A stretch of 30,626 bases of DNA from Candidatus Bathyarchaeia archaeon (GTDB lineage: Archaea > Thermoproteota > Bathyarchaeia > Bathyarchaeales > Bathycorpusculaceae), in the NCBI GenBank assembly GCA_050012755.1, contig JBEKGO010000036.1, positions 1 to 30,626 on the forward strand, in the 5' to 3' direction. A program made the translations under genes and the position numbers. This document shows, in pieces, positions 8,384 through 29,134 of the stretch. How positions within the stretch are numbered: the stretch's first letter is position 1; every line of letters starts with the position of its first letter. The notes under the pieces are model-generated. The model made no database searches, was not told the origin of the DNA, and saw only the letters and a program-made list of their open reading frames with translations.

Positions 8384-8765
8384 CTTTGGGATCCTCCCAT
8401 TTTATGTGTATTTCTTCAGGTTCTGCCTCATCTTGGATTTTAACGCCAGACATCTCAGCTAGGTCACAATTTATTTGACGCATTAGATTCAACGCTGTTA
8501 TGCGAGCCATGTCAGTTTTTGCCTGCATATATGTGACTACAGCTTTGCGGTACAGCTGCTCGTGTCTGTTACGAACTTTGAGCAGTGTCTTTTTCATCTC
8601 TTGAAGTTGAGGCTGCCAACGGCTCCGAATTTCAAAATCCTTGTATATAGCACGCTCAGTTACCCCGTATTTTGCGCTTAATTCCTTTACAATTTCACAA
8701 GGTTCCAGACCGTTTCCTTCGAGCTTTAACATTTCTAAACGTCTTTCAAACGTTGTCGTGTCCAT
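8361..8765 (-). CDS. Putative terminase small subunit (HTH plus helical region)
   Basis: Directly upstream of and overlapping terL; HTH-like EIVKELSAKYGVTERAIYKDF; GGTGA SD; C-terminal IHIKW strand. Confidence 0.7.
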   Translation of the reverse strand: MDTTTFERRLEMLKLEGNGLEPCEIVKELSAKYGVTERAIYKDFEIRSRWQPQLQEMKKTLLKVRNRHEQLYRKAVVTYMQAKTDMARITALNLMRQINCDLAEMSGVKIQDEAEPEEIHIKWEDPKAAQNSGN

Positions 8766-9247
8766 GAATTATCACCTTTAATTTTTTGGGGCGCATATTC
8801 AAGTGATACAGTAAGTCGTCCCTTACTTGCTGACTTTATGAGCCCCCGATTTATCTTTGAATCTGTTCTTCCATGTCGTCCATGCCCAACACGTTTAACA
8901 ATCCAACCATCCAAATTTCCACGAACCAGCTGCGGATTGCTCGTAACCAGATAGAACGGCAAATTCAACTGAGAAGTGTAGAGTTCAGCAACAAAATTTA
9001 GCAAACGCCTTCCGATGCCTATGCCCTGGTAATCAGGCAAAACAACGAGTCGGCTGACACGAAAAAAGTGACCTTTCATCCGTACATGCGCAACTGCGAT
9101 AAACGCTACAGGCTTTTCCTGATAGAGAGCAACGTAGCATCTGACGCCTGCTCCGAGCTTGCCGTTTAGATAGTGATACTGCCGAAACATCGTCCACATT
9201 GAAGTGCCGCACCGATAAACCTTAAGCTCAACGGGCGGCCGCTCTCT
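8735..9247 (-). CDS. GNAT (Mom-like) acyltransferase domain, probably the C-terminal part of an ATPase-GNAT fusion; first in-frame ATG at 9199
   Basis: WTMFRQYHYL and the acetyl-CoA motif SRLVVLPDYQGIGIG. The frame opens at the A7 run inside the upstream ATPase gene. Confidence 0.82.
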   Translation of the reverse strand, partial: RERPPVELKVYRCGTSMWTMFRQYHYLNGKLGAGVRCYVALYQEKPVAFIAVAHVRMKGHFFRVSRLVVLPDYQGIGIGRRLLNFVAELYTSQLNLPFYLVTSNPQLVRGNLDGWIVKRVGHGRHGRTDSKINRGLIKSASKGRLTVSLEYAPQKIKGDNSWTRQRLKDV

Positions 9248-9849
9248 TTTTTTCGGTCAAACTCCATGGTGTCAGTGCAGAAAACCCAATCAGGATCCAA
9301 CCAATCAACAACGTCGTAATGGCAGGTTACGGCTATGAATTTCTTGTCTTTCTGACGCCTGATTGCCTTGCTGATGGCGTAGGAAGCAATTTTTGCAACC
9401 TCGCGATCCACAACTGAGGTGAACTCGTCGAAGACAATCAGTTTTTTTGGAAGGCAAAGTGCTCTGGCGATGTCAACACGCATTTTTTCTCCTTGACTTA
9501 GGCAACTGTAAGATTTGAGCCAGTCTGGAGGCGAAGCAAAGCCGACGCTGCATAGAAGTCTGGTTGCTTCCTTTGTTTCTATTTCTTGGGGAAAATCATC
9601 TAGGATGCATTGATGCGTGTAGTCAAAGCCGGTAATGTAATCGTCTAAAAAGAGCTTTTTTGCTATACTTGATTTGCCTGAACCGCTGCGTCCGACAATG
9701 ATGCCTATTTGCCAGTCGTCTCCCTCAAATGGCAGTGAGCCTTTGAAATGCTTTTGTAACTTAACGTCGTTTAATGTGAAGCTGCCAACGACGCTTTGCG
9801 CTCGAAAACTCTCCGGTTTACTCCAACTCTTGACAAAATCAAAATCCAT
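9166..9849 (-). CDS. Soluble ABC-type ATPase (no permease partner)
   Basis: Walker A GRSGSGKS, signature-like LSQGE, Walker B IVFDEFTS, H-loop VTCH. Confidence 0.88.
   Translation of the reverse strand: MDFDFVKSWSKPESFRAQSVVGSFTLNDVKLQKHFKGSLPFEGDDWQIGIIVGRSGSGKSSIAKKLFLDDYITGFDYTHQCILDDFPQEIETKEATRLLCSVGFASPPDWLKSYSCLSQGEKMRVDIARALCLPKKLIVFDEFTSVVDREVAKIASYAISKAIRRQKDKKFIAVTCHYDVVDWLDPDWVFCTDTMEFDRKKESGRPLSLRFIGAALQCGRCFGSITI
9206..9265 (-). promoter_or_regulatory. Candidate -1 programmed frameshift signal
   Basis: GGAG, then 8 nt, then A_AAA_AAA (9253-9247), a 7-nt spacer and a 34-nt hairpin (9239-9206). Confidence 0.6.
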
Positions 9850-9861
9850 TTCCGCCTCTCC

Positions 9862-10428
9862 CTACAAATTCAAAACTCTCACTTTGTATCCTTCCGTTTT
9901 GAATTTCTCAAAAAAGAACATCTGCTGGGTTTCGTCTGTGCATTCGATGATTAGCTCATAGCTGTCCGGTATTATGTTTGAGTTTTCAGGTGCATGGCCA
10001 TCGGTTTCCGGTAGTGTCTCGCCAATTGACTGTAGTAGTGCTTTTAGGCAATCGCTTTTGCCTGCCTCTATAATGCGCATGTACTCGGCATCGTCAAGCT
10101 CCCTGTTATGTTTACCTTTGAGCTTGTTTAGAATCTGCCGCAGCATTCGCCTATCAACATCAGAAACTGGCAGCCGAAGAACCGGAGCAAAAAACTCGCC
10201 CTGTTCTTTGCAAACCTGCGCTCTCTGTTCACCATCAGCGAAGACGCCCTCTTTGTTGGTTATGATTGGGTAGGTCCACCCGTACTTTTGGAGGCTACGC
10301 CAAACTTGTTCTTTCTGTTTGATTGCCATTTTGTTTGGGTTGTTTTCGTCACTTTTTAGAAGCCGAAGATCTTCAAGCAGGGGCAAGTAAGCATCTGGGA
10401 CAATGATGTTTGTTTTCTTTTCAGCCAA
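9862..10428 (-). CDS. ParB/Srx N-terminal-domain protein (start reassigned to TTG 10428)
   Basis: NNPNKM...SLQKYGWTYPII...ADGEQR pattern. GGTGA SD at 10437-10433. The longer start overlaps the divergent gene. Confidence 0.8.
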   Translation of the reverse strand: MAEKKTNIIVPDAYLPLLEDLRLLKSDENNPNKMAIKQKEQVWRSLQKYGWTYPIITNKEGVFADGEQRAQVCKEQGEFFAPVLRLPVSDVDRRMLRQILNKLKGKHNRELDDAEYMRIIEAGKSDCLKALLQSIGETLPETDGHAPENSNIIPDSYELIIECTDETQQMFFFEKFKTEGYKVRVLNL

Positions 10429-10473
10429 TTTATCACCAAAACTTAAGAGGGCTGTTGTTTGGTATAGATTGCA

Positions 10474-11211
10474 TTGGTGTATGATTTGGGTACCAATGGG
10501 CACGGAATCCAAAAACTGGATGTTTACGAAAAAGCTGTTTTAGATTTGCTTAATTTTGGACCTAAGCAGAGGAAATGGCTTGTAGAGCAGTTATGCACAA
10601 AGATTATGTCGAAGAGGAAACTGCAGGGGACTCTCAACAGCTTGGAAGATGCTGGAAAAATCAAAAAAGTCTATCGGAGCATCGATGATAGACAGACGAC
10701 GTGGTACGTTTTGCCTGAGCAGGAGTATCTTCTAAATGTCGATGAGGGAAGGATGCTGTCGGCGATGGATCGTTTGAAGAAGTTTCTTTTTCGTCCCGCA
10801 ACCGTCGATGAGCTTGCGGTTGAAACTGGTGTTACACCTGCAGTTGCTGAGAAGTTGGCTTACAAGTTGGCAGTGCAAGCTGGATGGTTTAATCCTTCGC
10901 CAGAGCTCATTGCCCATGCACGGGAAAAGCTTGGGGAAGTTTTGGTGTGCGCAGCAAGAATTAAACAAAACGTGTTTTCTGACGCCGACTTGAACCATAT
11001 TTATAGAAATGACCTGGAAATCATAGATGAGGCAAAACGGTTTTTGAATGAGCATCCTGAAATGATTCCCAGCCTTAAACCCGATGAGTACTTTCATCCG
11101 GTGGCTTGGTGTTTATCTTGGCCAGATGAAGCCCTAAAATACCTTGGAAGCCCCCATAAACCAAAAACTCGCCCCATCCCCGGCGTCGGTGTCCGTTTCA
11201 TCCAACATTAA
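10474..11211 (+). CDS. Winged-HTH protein divergent from the terminase operon, possible regulator
   Basis: N-terminal wHTH-like AVLDLL...LQGTLNSLEDAGKIKK...WYVL and a second HTH-like TVDELAVETGVTP. Exact start uncertain. Confidence 0.6.
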   Translation: MVYDLGTNGHGIQKLDVYEKAVLDLLNFGPKQRKWLVEQLCTKIMSKRKLQGTLNSLEDAGKIKKVYRSIDDRQTTWYVLPEQEYLLNVDEGRMLSAMDRLKKFLFRPATVDELAVETGVTPAVAEKLAYKLAVQAGWFNPSPELIAHAREKLGEVLVCAARIKQNVFSDADLNHIYRNDLEIIDEAKRFLNEHPEMIPSLKPDEYFHPVAWCLSWPDEALKYLGSPHKPKTRPIPGVGVRFIQH

Positions 11212-11326: not shown

Positions 11327-11389
11327 TCATATTTGTTGATTGACTGCCTTGACTATGTCTTCAATGTAATCAATGAACTCTTTTGTCAT
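11327..11389 (-). pseudogene. 5' fragment of a HEPN toxin (20 codons)
   Basis: MTKEFIDYIEDIVKAVN matches the start of 13260-13607 (MTKEFIDYVEDIIKAMN), then diverges and stops. Confidence 0.85.
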
Positions 11390-11684
11390 ATGGTTACAAC
11401 TTCTTCTAAAACATGTTTTCCAATTCTGGGTTTAAGGGTTCCTTTCTCTACCAAGTCGACTTTGACGCCTAAAATGTCAGTAAGGTAGTTCTCTAGTCCT
11501 ATAAAATCCAATAAACTTAGTTTAGATAACTCTTCAAACTCAACTAAGATATCAATATCGCTTTTTTTCTTTTGTTCTCCTCTTACGTAGGAACCAAAAA
11601 TGCCAATGTCTTTGACTTGATAATTCTTCTTTAGCTCTTGCTTATGTTTGCTTAACATTTTTTTATTTGGTCGATAGTTATCAT
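11386..11684 (-). pseudogene. MNT antitoxin paralogue with a 1-nt deletion in an A-run (may restart at ATG 11658)
   Basis: Near-identical protein to 13604-13903; 299 nt versus 300 nt, with A7 at 11664-11658 versus A8 in the paralogue. Confidence 0.8.
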
Positions 11685-11782
11685 TGATTTTCACTTTATT
11701 ATTTGCTCTTGAAAAGTTAAGGTTTGCTCTTGGGAATTGTGGTGCAAGGCACTCAAGAAATCTTCTAAAATCATCTGTGACG

Positions 11783-11831
11783 TTCTGCGGTTCTATGAAG
11801 AAGCAGAGAAAAACAAAGAAACACGCAACTT
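11783..11831. repeat. 49-bp repeat family R1, copy A
   Basis: TTCTGCGGTTCTATGAAGAAGCAGAGAAAAACAAAGAAACACGCAACTT; 4 mismatches to copy C. Confidence 0.9.
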
Positions 11832-11888
11832 CCACTAACTTAGCCTTTCGCAGATTAACTCGGAATTTTTTGGAATGATAGAATTTTA

Positions 11889-27714: not shown

Positions 27715-27889
27715 ACCCAAACTTGCCCAGATTACATCAACACATAAAACACAACCCAAATAAAAGTTACTACTAAAAGTGAGTATCTTCTTGCATTTTC
27801 AATTAATAAGTAATTCAATATTCCAAATCCTGGAAACACCACAGTATATTTATACTTTAGACAAAGCGGATATAGTTGAGTGCAAAGGA

Positions 27890-29134
27890 ATGATTGAAGA
27901 AACGGCACAAATCACATCACATATTTTTGTCTCTTCAGAAAAGACTGAAAAAGAATGTTTCGAAAGAATGCTTTTCGGTACAAGCAAAATATATGCTGAC
28001 GACGCTTTAGCAGTCAAGAAAGGTGACCTATTATTTTTGCTTAATGTAGACTCGAACGTTTTGCATGGTGTTTTCCGTTCAAAGTCTGATGGCAAACAAA
28101 ACATTGTGTCTGAGGCATGGAAAGGTAAGTATCCATACCAAGTTGAGGTCGAGCAGATGGGTAACCTTCAAACTCTAAAAAAAGCGAGGATTTTGCTTAA
28201 AAAACTAGGCGTTGAATCACACAGATCCTTGAGTGATTCAATAACGAAACGACTCCTCACGCTTTTCTCATTAACTGAATCTGATTATCTTAAGCAGCTC
28301 GCAGATAGCAAAGCTTGGGGTTTTTTAACTCCTGATTATTCTAAAAATGAAAAAGGCAAAAATAATGAGCCTTCAGGGGAAGAAAGACCAAAACTGGAGT
28401 CGACAACTCTCTGGGACTTTCCTAGACAAAGTTATGGTAGAAATCCCAAGGGGAATAACAAATATGCTGGAGTTACTCCCGCGTTTGTAATTTGGAATAT
28501 GATACAAAGGTATACAGAACCTGATGATTTAGTTCTTGATCCAATGTGCGGCAGTGGAACAACGCTGGACGTTTGCAAAGAGGAAGGGCGGAAAGCCATT
28601 TGCTACGATATAGCGCCACCACCTTACCGACCAGATGTAATACAAAATGATGCTCGACATATTCCTCCTCCAGACAATGCGGTTGATATGATATTCATAG
28701 ACTCACCCTATGGTGATAACATTCGCTATAACGACCATCCCGATAACATCGGTCTGATTTCGAGTGAAGACGAGAAATTCTACGAAGCACTCGAGACAGT
28801 CATGACCGAATGCTATAGAGTATTGAAACCTGGAGAAGTAATTGGCTGGCTCATAGGTGATCAATGGGTAAAGAAAAAATTCACGCCCGTAGGATTCAAA
28901 ATTTACCAAAGCCTCTGCAAAAACTTTGAAACAGTAGATGTAATTTGTGTAGCAAGAAGGAGTCAAGCTTCTAATACTTCTTTTTGGCATAGCCGAGCTA
29001 AGCGTTATAACTTCTATCTAAGGGGTTTCAAGTATCTGTTTATTATGCGTAAAGCCGTTGATGAGCCAGTTAAACTTGAAAAGCGAAGTGTTAAATGGAC
29101 ATACTACGATAGAAATAAGAACCATATACAATAA
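27890..29134 (+). CDS. Amino (N4-C/N6-A) DNA methyltransferase with N-terminal DCD domain; start reassigned to ATG 27890
   Basis: DCD-like IFVSSEKTEKECFERMLFG...GDLLFLLN...LHGVF...NI...AW...YPYQV; SAM motif VLDPMCGSGTT; catalytic FIDSPY; TATA-like TATTTATA upstream. Confidence 0.85.
   Translation: MIEETAQITSHIFVSSEKTEKECFERMLFGTSKIYADDALAVKKGDLLFLLNVDSNVLHGVFRSKSDGKQNIVSEAWKGKYPYQVEVEQMGNLQTLKKARILLKKLGVESHRSLSDSITKRLLTLFSLTESDYLKQLADSKAWGFLTPDYSKNEKGKNNEPSGEERPKLESTTLWDFPRQSYGRNPKGNNKYAGVTPAFVIWNMIQRYTEPDDLVLDPMCGSGTTLDVCKEEGRKAICYDIAPPPYRPDVIQNDARHIPPPDNAVDMIFIDSPYGDNIRYNDHPDNIGLISSEDEKFYEALETVMTECYRVLKPGEVIGWLIGDQWVKKKFTPVGFKIYQSLCKNFETVDVICVARRSQASNTSFWHSRAKRYNFYLRGFKYLFIMRKAVDEPVKLEKRSVKWTYYDRNKNHIQ

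Follow-up and report, generated by a model that had tools for sequence, protein, structure and literature searches.

A 30,626-nt stretch of DNA from a Candidatus Bathyarchaeia archaeon (peat), referred to here as the window, encodes an ABC-type ATPase whose reading frame ends inside the coding sequence of a GNAT acetyltransferase domain that lies in the -1 frame. Comparison of homologous sequences indicates that the junction of the two frames is a real, conserved recoding site; programmed -1 frameshifting is a known class of recoding, and this gene family was not reported for it in the literature searched. The gene is probably read in two ways by means of an old programmed -1 ribosomal frameshift. 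As more than 100 relatives keep the split, the cell most likely makes both the short ATPase and the longer ATPase-acetyltransferase. Coordinates refer to the minus strand unless stated otherwise. An initial annotation had described an A7 heptamer with a hairpin 7 nt downstream, a -1-frame TGA, a GGAG sequence, and products of 227 and 371 aa, and all of these were located at the positions that it gave. The elements of the junction are as follows:

9849-9166, minus strand: zero-frame open reading frame (ORF) of the ABC-type ATPase, 227 aa (PF00005, E 1.3e-09)
9265-9262, minus strand: GGAG, 8 nt upstream of the run and within Met-Glu codons, a possible Shine-Dalgarno (SD)-like stimulator
9259-9257, minus strand: TGA closing the -1 frame just before the slip site
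9253-9247, minus strand: slippery run of seven A (A7), heptamer A_AAA_AAA in the zero-frame register, in the context ATG GAG TTT GAC CGA AAA AAA GAG
9246-9240, minus strand: 7-nt spacer between run and stem, variable in sequence and constant in length (ungapped alignment of 75 unique sequences)
9239-9206, minus strand: hairpin with an outer 8-bp stem, GCCGCCCG with CGG-U-GCGGC, containing one bulged U, and an inner 6-bp stem with a 3-nt loop
9247-8735, minus strand: -1-frame coding part of the fusion (linker, first beta-strand, and rest of the GNAT domain), 170 codons plus stop
9199-9197, minus strand: ATG called as the GNAT start by ORF callers, downstream of the first GNAT strand and unconserved
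9199 to an end at 8735, minus strand: GNAT domain ORF from ATG 9199, 154 aa (PF13508/PF00583)

The final 26 aa of the ATPase ORF are an out-of-frame tail, and its stop codon (TAA, 9168-9166) falls inside the conserved YHYL codons of the GNAT domain. The -1 frame is open from 9256 to the stop at 8737-8735. The fusion is predicted to have 201 + 170 = 371 aa and the unshifted product 227 aa; homologues of the ATPase are nearly all 221-227 aa in length, with more than 100 clusters at 71-94% identity in the protein search.

The loci compared comprised 80 from species-representative genomes, nearly all of them metagenome-assembled genomes (MAGs) labelled Bathyarchaeia or Bathyarchaeota, and 78 from IMG/VR. 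Searching by tblastn with both halves of the gene, a close set was defined as the 114 sources, the window included, in which the ATPase is at least 62% identical. All 114 carry a run of 7-10 A at the junction, and in 113 of them the -1 break is located at this same run (7-9 A), with the tblastn match to the GNAT half beginning on the last A. The single exception (L112) has A10 where its neighbors have A9, encodes an in-frame fusion of 361 aa, and is placed inside the broken clade. A sequencing error was considered as the origin of the break and rejected, as 113 sources, drawn from many assemblies, share the break and contigs assembled from other sequencing runs contain no indel. These independent contigs have A7, as initially annotated, and not A8: in run X2, record 6 matches the window without differences over 9168-9789; in run X5, the A-run is traversed without gaps by records 26 and 27; and no indels are listed for the contigs of any of the four runs. 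In other peat runs, contig depth is up to about 50-fold higher at 9153-9345 (483 versus about 6-10 in run X5), a peak over the junction and YHYL region that arises because many related elements share this conserved stretch.

The frame under selection changes at the run. Among the 77 unique A7 sequences, the variable positions ahead of the run are third positions of zero-frame codons, and those beyond it are third positions of -1-frame codons; the codon periodicity flips at the run, and both overlapping ORFs are under protein-coding selection. Intactness was assessed for 114 frame-broken loci, consisting of the 113 close sources and the deep-branching IMG/VR locus L115. Both halves are intact in 102 of these loci, and two are cut by the end of the locus. 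The GNAT half, at 38-89% identity across the clade, keeps its acetyl-CoA motif region (LPDYQG.G.G). Only a handful of in-frame forms was identified among the closest clusters, namely P0122, which is in frame at the run, P0137, in which the frame is restored inside the hairpin loop, and P0141, P0123, and P0124. A pattern with A8 in the consensus hairpin context had no matches in IMG/VR, and the corresponding A7 pattern had 17, of which 10 are true homologues; in the metagenome contig collection, where A8 was the sole pattern scanned, 75 matches were obtained, none of them a true homologue. Since homopolymers mutate easily and in-frame revertants are rare, the break appears to be kept by selection.

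Two unusual groups of sequences were encountered in this comparison. One IMG/VR contig (L114:3560-3620) has T9 followed by A5 at the same junction, with the GNAT half in the +1 frame; such an arrangement would need a one-base loss or a +1 shift, and an assembly error is possible in this single contig. In addition, two short contigs with the archaeal-type module of A7 and hairpin (L012 and L062) are from MAGs labelled Anaerolineaceae bacterium, a bacterial label that is probably a binning artefact.

Runs of seven A are by themselves not above chance in the window, which contains 37 against 50 +/- 9 expected. With A7 at an ordinary frequency, what exceeds chance is the conservation of the junction run. 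A run of 7-9 A is kept at the junction in all 110 unique close homologues, and A_AAA_AAA or A_AAA_AAG is in register in every one of them. As a control, a second in-register A7 of the ATPase gene (9448-9442, CCA AAA AAA CTG) was followed through the same alignment and is kept in one of the 110. Outside the junction, Lys codons are AAA 812 times and AAG 772 times (51% AAA), and AAAAAA encodes 19 of the 128 pairs of adjacent Lys residues. All 12 of the commonest junction contexts, which represent 88 of the 110 unique homologues, have AAA AAA as the two Lys codons or, in the A_AAA_AAG lineages, AAA AAG (the commonest A_AAA_AAG context accounts for 5 of 110). These counts indicate that selection maintains the A-run beyond codon usage.

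Upstream of the run, most homologues have a -1-frame stop codon either 3 nt ahead of the run or overlapping its start. The upstream SD element of the initial annotation was recovered as a sequence: GGAG is contained in 68 of the 80 unique junctions of the hairpin class and in 17 of the 29 that have no hairpin, the baseline for GAG among Glu codons being 54%. The part assigned to it as a stimulator is suggestive only, because GGAG sits in conserved Met-Glu codons. No 16S rRNA gene with which to examine anti-SD pairing was found in the MAG to which the window belongs.

Downstream of the spacer, a 51-nt fold containing the hairpin has a minimum free energy of -21.1 kcal/mol (z = -2.68), and 1 of 200 shuffled sequences was equally stable; in a 151-nt context the hairpin persists, but the stretch as a whole is not unusually stable (z -0.59). 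The outer pairs are invariant in 73-75 of the 75 unique sequences, and the innermost pair (columns 34-52) is kept in 66 of the 75. If the 80 unique hairpin-class sequences are considered, the four-fold degenerate sites in the arms are invariant (80/80, 78/78, 79/79, and 80/80; entropy 0.00), and comparable four-fold sites past the two-frame overlap have entropies of 1.7-1.95 bits. With all three codon positions fixed in the arms, neither reading frame alone accounts for the conservation. Replacement of the stem was seen only between clades, and searching Rfam over positions 8600-10000 returned no family at E <= 1. The predicted hairpin is supported by synonymous-site invariance and by its position, without covariation. 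The homologues keep both the break and the hairpin, and the close ones are not in-frame fusions that lack it.

The length of the run and the presence of the hairpin are coupled. The 107 unique junctions include 74 with A7 and a stem, three with A8 and a stem, and 27 with A9 and no stem, such that the stem is present in 77 of the 79 A7/A8 junctions and absent in 27 of the 28 A9 junctions. The exceptions are L054 (A9 with a stem), L075 (A7 with a degraded stem and stop codons), and L113 (A8 read as A_AAA_AAG, without a stem). The mean folding energy of the 55 nt after the run is -20.3 kcal/mol for A7 (z -2.1, n=71) versus -10.5 kcal/mol for A9 (z 0.0, n=27), and no alternative conserved structure was found in the A9 class, for which the mean z is 0.0. 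On a quick tree of the ATPase, the A7-stem and A9 states interchange at least six times, sometimes between near-identical ATPases (L010 versus L030). Both arms and the run change together at such switches, which could reflect coordinated change or recombination. By analogy, this trade-off between run length and hairpin fits published data from poly-A frameshift reporters in E. coli, for which the accessible text reports 10%, 40%, and 63% shifted product at 7, 9, and 11 A's, respectively (PMC3711429).

Relatives in which the two halves are joined directly indicate that the ATPase-GNAT fusion is the ancestral, functional form. A group of 42 loci, more distant at 37-52% identity, lacks the A-run and encodes both halves in frame as fusions of 302-444 aa. 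An exhaustive profile-free search of 50%-identity clusters resulted in 539 representatives at E <= 1e-30, and about 140 of the best 150 have at least 300 aa. The family phrog_11143, named 'ABC-type ATPase with predicted acetyltransferase domain' by JGI, spans both halves, with the ATPase matching its positions 12-201 (E 6.4e-59) and the -1 product its positions 197-348 (E 1.7e-30). The match to the -1 translation begins at residue 3, and the natural fusion L112 matches positions 15-354 of the family (E 2.8e-94). The Walker A, ABC signature, and Walker B motifs and the GNAT acetyl-CoA motif (G..GK, LS.GE, FDE.TS, and P.DYQG.G.G, respectively) are invariant in the alignments and are all retained in the translations of the window. 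One 715-aa relative (P0282) carries an intein with Hint and LAGLIDADG homing endonuclease domains inside its ATPase part.

The protein sequence is also continuous across the junction. In-frame relatives align through it with a Lys-rich linker, an RP, and an alternating hydrophobic strand (..KK.RP.I.L.I..), and the part of the -1 frame that precedes the first Met shares homology with their linker and first GNAT strand. An AlphaFold model of L112, built with a 61-sequence alignment (pLDDT 86, pTM 0.81), places the Lys run in a loop at residues 200-208, followed by a beta-strand at residues 209-214 and then by a helix with the conserved W..F..YHYL. Since the window encodes that strand upstream of ATG 9199, a GNAT protein begun at this codon would lack it. 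Start codons between the slip site and YHYL were tabulated for 109 unique junctions, a total that includes six rows to be disregarded because their register was misread (L092-L096 and L113): 21 have no ATG, GTG, or TTG, and five have only GTG or TTG. The proposal that -1 recoding joins the ATPase to the GNAT domain is upheld by these comparisons, in that the break, run, and hairpin are kept in more than 100 divergent homologues, the frame of selection shifts, and distant relatives are fused in frame.

The same break was identified in phages of Lactobacillales. Among GenBank phage records, 64 match the ATPase and 61 match the GNAT half, and of the 58 that match both, tblastn coordinates place the GNAT half in the -1 frame in 18 and in frame in 40. 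All 18 infect Lactobacillales hosts (12 Streptococcus, three Oenococcus, two Lactococcus P335-type, and one Enterococcus) and include P335, 315.4, phiNIH1.1, Vinitor-27, and the Oenococcus phages. Five were examined in detail (L253-L257: MT859305.1, MK448933.1, NC_004587.1, DQ838728.1, and OL774867.1). In each, the ATPase ORF has 225-226 aa and terminates within the YHYL codons, and the conserved N-terminal GNAT segment is in the -1 frame; in L254, inspected by eye codon by codon, the -1 frame contains no ATG, GTG, or TTG before the conserved Trp. The in-register slip candidates are GGTTTTT in the Streptococcus and Lactococcus phages and in IMG/VR locus L116, whereas the Oenococcus phage has AAAGGGC; 'twofive', a motif name used in PRFect, probably denotes GGTTTTT. 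Stems begin 5-6 nt downstream in four of the five phages and in L116 (z -1.5 to -4.1), with arms CCCCCAC/GTGGGG in the phages and CGCCCAC/GTGGGCG in L116. The deep-branching L115 (49% identity) has A_AAA_AAG within an A9 run. In GenBank, these phages are annotated with two genes, the second beginning inside the GNAT domain; in Vinitor-27, the annotated GNAT start is the TTG that encodes the Leu of the YHYL motif, and the phage ATPase is labelled as a siderophore or oligopeptide transporter. On a quick tree of 62 sequences, a branch with an SH-aLRT support of 97% has all 31 broken forms, together with the revertant L112, on one of its sides.

According to the mechanism that we propose, most ribosomes would stay in frame and produce the 227-aa ATPase with its 26-aa out-of-frame tail. 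Some would slip back one base on A_AAA_AAA (9253-9247), helped by the hairpin 7 nt downstream, and would then enter the GNAT frame to yield the 371-aa ATPase-GNAT, the form encoded directly by in-frame relatives. The split would be old and maintained across Bathyarchaeia (pro)viruses and Lactobacillales phages, with the slip site and stimulator having been replaced several times, presumably giving rise to A7 with a GC-rich hairpin, A9 alone, A_AAA_AAG, GGTTTTT with the CCCCCAC/GTGGGG stem, and AAAGGGC. That synonymous sites outside the overlap are saturated argues for an old break. We infer that the slip is made by the ribosome and not by RNA polymerase, because of the 3' stem, its 7-nt spacing, the register of the heptamer, the need of short runs for a stem, and the non-homopolymer heptamers in relatives. 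Both products would presumably be needed in a set ratio. In its widest form, the proposal is of an ancient -1 frameshift in a ParB-linked ABC-ATPase-GNAT gene that is common to Lactobacillales phages and Bathyarchaeia viruses, in which the signals have been swapped and a fixed product ratio is essential, for instance for a mixed ABC dimer with a single GNAT; we regard this wider form as equally apt to prove right or wrong.

Several observations weigh against a programmed ribosomal frameshift. No RNA run containing the sequence was found in the sequencing-run search, an extra A in the RNA would give an identical protein, and A-runs provoke polymerase slippage. Compensatory changes in the stem, for which the initial annotation had called, are absent from all 14 pairs within the A7 class (0/14; RNAalifold and pair counts), with shuffled alignments performing equally, and the stem could instead be invariant because a protein binds there at the DNA level or because the sequence is coding in two frames. 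For the Oenococcus site, no stem is predicted (z +0.83). An ATG is present at -1-frame codon 16 or 19 past the slip site in 83 of the 109 unique junctions, and an N-terminally shortened GNAT might also be made. Extra stops in one half were found in 10 of the 114 broken loci, suggesting that some copies are decaying, and the position of the window's copy in a short island amid host genes suggests that it may be a silent provirus remnant. Lastly, the trees are quick searches with a midpoint root, with which a single old origin is compatible but not proven.

If the break were instead bypassed by programmed transcriptional slippage, the polymerase would add one A and the ribosome would read normally. 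We consider this unlikely overall, and plausible above all for the A9 forms. One added A yields exactly the same fusion, and the natural revertant L112 corresponds to its neighbors plus one A. A9 is present in 28 of the 107 unique archaeal-type junctions, 27 of which have no downstream structure, and runs longer than seven are linked to slippage in the accessible text of Antonov et al. 2013 (PMC3711429). The window, however, has only A7, which is below the approximately 8-9 or more A/T required for stuttering, a length reached only in the A9 relatives. Polymerase slippage is promoted by hairpins that form in the nascent RNA ahead of the run, on its upstream side, whereas A7 and A8 runs are nearly always accompanied by a stem 7 nt downstream (77 of 79), as for ribosomal stimulators. 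Moreover, an in-register X_XXY_YYZ heptamer is present in all of the runs, and the Lactobacillales relatives break at GGTTTTT or AAAGGGC, with no long homopolymer; T5 and AAAGGG are too short for polymerase stuttering, which points to the ribosome.

An improbable reading is that the inverted repeat acts at the DNA level, for instance as a site for the ParB-like protein or the terminase, and that frameshifting is caused by the A-run alone. Arms that are invariant and do not covary would agree with such a site, as would neighboring genes for a ParB-like protein and a terminase. A DNA site does not, however, predict that the repeat should be absent precisely where the run is longer (27 of 28 A9 junctions), that it should lie at the canonical 7-nt distance, or that the Lactobacillales relatives should have different stems at the same relative place.

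A very improbable alternative is that two separate proteins are made, with the GNAT protein begun at ATG 9199 through overlapping genes or translational coupling and no fusion formed. In line with this possibility, most close homologues have an ATG or another start as codon 16 or 19 of the -1 frame, a GGTG is located 9-12 nt ahead of ATG 9199, and the phage relatives are annotated with two genes in GenBank. Against it, the stretch of 16 -1-frame codons that precedes the ATG shows conservation at the protein level, can be aligned with in-frame relatives, and corresponds to the first GNAT strand of the model. The junctions devoid of any start codon (the 21 of 109) include the whole L097-L111 group, and L254, the one Lactobacillales phage inspected codon by codon, likewise has none. 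Separate initiation also leaves the conserved A-run, its register, and the stem unexplained. Hardly credible is the simple 1-nt deletion that the initial annotation had entertained, in which a gene that is drifting tolerates a break in its Lys-rich linker: the linkers of in-frame relatives (QKKNRP) would make such a deletion easy, 10 of 114 copies have additional stops, and the window's island resembles a provirus remnant, but the comparative tests disfavor it, as the break is conserved, the GNAT half is under selection with its codon periodicity and invariant acetyl-CoA motif region retained, 102 of 114 copies are intact in both halves, in-frame forms are rare despite the ease with which homopolymers revert, and the synonymous saturation outside the overlap marks the break as old.

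A programmed ribosomal frameshift at this junction would resemble several characterized systems. In OrfAB of the IS3 family, the slip site is followed by a downstream structure, the shifted product is a longer fusion with a second domain, and the short product is also made. Members such as IS911 and IS150 have A_AAA_AAG or A_AAA_AAA in the ORF overlap, heptamers that the accessible text of PMC3711429 names for programmed ribosomal frameshifting. In contrast to this transposase, the gene described here encodes a virus accessory enzyme (ABC ATPase-GNAT), is found in archaeal (pro)viruses and Lactobacillales phages, and belongs to a family that is mostly in frame. In E. coli dnaX, which encodes tau and gamma, a slippery Lys heptamer is preceded by an SD-like element and followed, after 6-7 nt, by a hairpin. 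The shift in dnaX truncates the product, whereas the shift proposed here would extend it, and the SD element here is putative. The poly-A clusters of Mg-chelatase genes (chlD/bchD-type) and Thermus dnaX likewise have poly-A runs of 7-11, in which the proportion of shifted product rises with the length of the run (PMC3711429); those cases are perhaps transcriptional, whereas the A7 class here has a 3' hairpin and relatives with non-homopolymer heptamers. TmcA (tRNA-Met cytidine acetyltransferase, PDB 2zpa) also combines a P-loop ATPase and a GNAT in one chain, but its ATPase is helicase-like where this one is ABC-type, and there is no sequence-family link.

Within Archaea, the accessible text of PMC8211752 names fucA1 as the only -1 frameshift shown experimentally and mentions a few more that are predicted in haloarchaeal tail-chaperone genes. 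In fucA1 of Sulfolobus solfataricus, a -1 shift at A_AAA_AAT with a putative stem-loop joins two ORFs into an active enzyme, as was proven experimentally; in close relatives, which differ by a single A, the frame is unbroken, and the gene is broken in two strains only (PMC8211752). Whereas fucA1 has been proven at the bench, the break described here is known from sequence alone and is present in more than 100 divergent sequences; set against the two strains of fucA1, the comparative support is far stronger here. In tailed phages as well as in tailed viruses of haloarchaea, a conserved -1 shift in the G/GT tail assembly chaperone gene determines how much short product is made relative to the long one, as described in the accessible parts of PMC8211752 and PMC10885494. 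That gene is a structural-module gene of known role, whereas the present one is a non-structural gene beside ParB and terminase genes. Concerning this gene's own frameshift, nothing was found in the literature searched, where supplementary tables could list the gene. A preprint on Bathyarchaeia viruses has no mention of a frameshift, acetyltransferase, ABC, ParB, or GNAT, and the PRFect paper and Antonov 2013 have no mention of 'acetyltransferase'.

The gene provides a strong comparative example of recoding, in that a family from archaeal viruses keeps the break, the slippery run, and the stimulator in more than 100 divergent sequences. If the proposed mechanism is true, the archaeal branch would be the best comparatively supported -1 frameshift in Archaea, and the A7 junctions with a hairpin and the A9 junctions without one would form a natural titration series in which two extra A's can replace the hairpin. 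Since the same break is present in cultivable phages of harmless hosts (Lactococcus P335 and Oenococcus), the proposal is directly testable. Database annotation of the gene is wrong twice: the ATPase is recorded as an 'ABC transporter', and the GNAT, in truncated form and begun inside the domain, is entered as a 'hypothetical protein'.

The genes that surround the junction in the window include the following:

9862-10512, minus strand: ParB-like gene directly upstream of the ATPase (phrog_620/498)
8765-8361, minus strand: small downstream ORF, with a tblastn match in 48 of the 114 frame-broken loci
8305-7088, minus strand: terminase large subunit, TerL (PF03237, PF17289), with a tblastn match in 30 of the 114 frame-broken loci

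The small ORF and terminase downstream indicate that the module derives from a tailed virus. Together with the ParB-like and ATPase-GNAT genes, they constitute a short island of viral-type genes at about 2-11 kb that is flanked by host genes (P-type ATPase, NosD-like, Lon, and SHMT); no capsid or portal gene was recognized by Pfam among the window ORFs tested. The MAG of the window holds one copy of the module, and some other MAGs hold many, such as one assembly with eight loci.

A ParB-like gene is located upstream in 110 of the 114 frame-broken loci, and four natural three-domain proteins (P0243, P0255, P0274, and P0286) consist of a ParB-like N-terminal domain and the ATPase-GNAT (phrog_620 + phrog_11143). 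The ParB part of these long relatives was detected with PHROGs; Pfam gave no ParB match at E <= 0.001, and BLASTP of the window's ParB-like protein against P0243 gave no match. The ParB-like protein is likely a functional partner, and the tight link and natural fusions point to an unstudied enzyme module beside the packaging genes of many tailed viruses. From the gene linkage, the triple fusions that occur naturally, and a weak similarity of fold to TmcA, we would guess that the enzyme is an ATP-driven acetyltransferase acting together with the ParB-like protein at around the time of packaging. The 'toxic DNA modifier' of the initial annotation is a role to which nothing points. Three other assignments were considered and rejected. 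An ABC transporter subunit is not indicated, as NCBIfam matches are far below their cut-offs (for example, 39.5 versus 315 bits) and no permease is encoded nearby. For a defence system, PADLOC returned only weak matches to the ATPase domain (mad3, E 1e-14, partial). Foldseek with the L112 model retrieved ABC nucleotide-binding domains, with TmcA (PDB 2zpa) at rank 2 (E 5.5e-08, TM-score 0.31 / 0.18); a TmcA-like RNA acetyltransferase was set aside, as the fold match has a low TM-score (0.31) and the ATPase here is ABC-type and not helicase-type.

Elsewhere in the window, a single ORF on the plus strand (27779-29134) encodes both a DNA methylase (N6_N4_Mtase) and a DCD ('development and cell death') domain, and a small nucleotidyltransferase ORF (NTP_transf_2) is encoded on the minus strand at 11386-11835.

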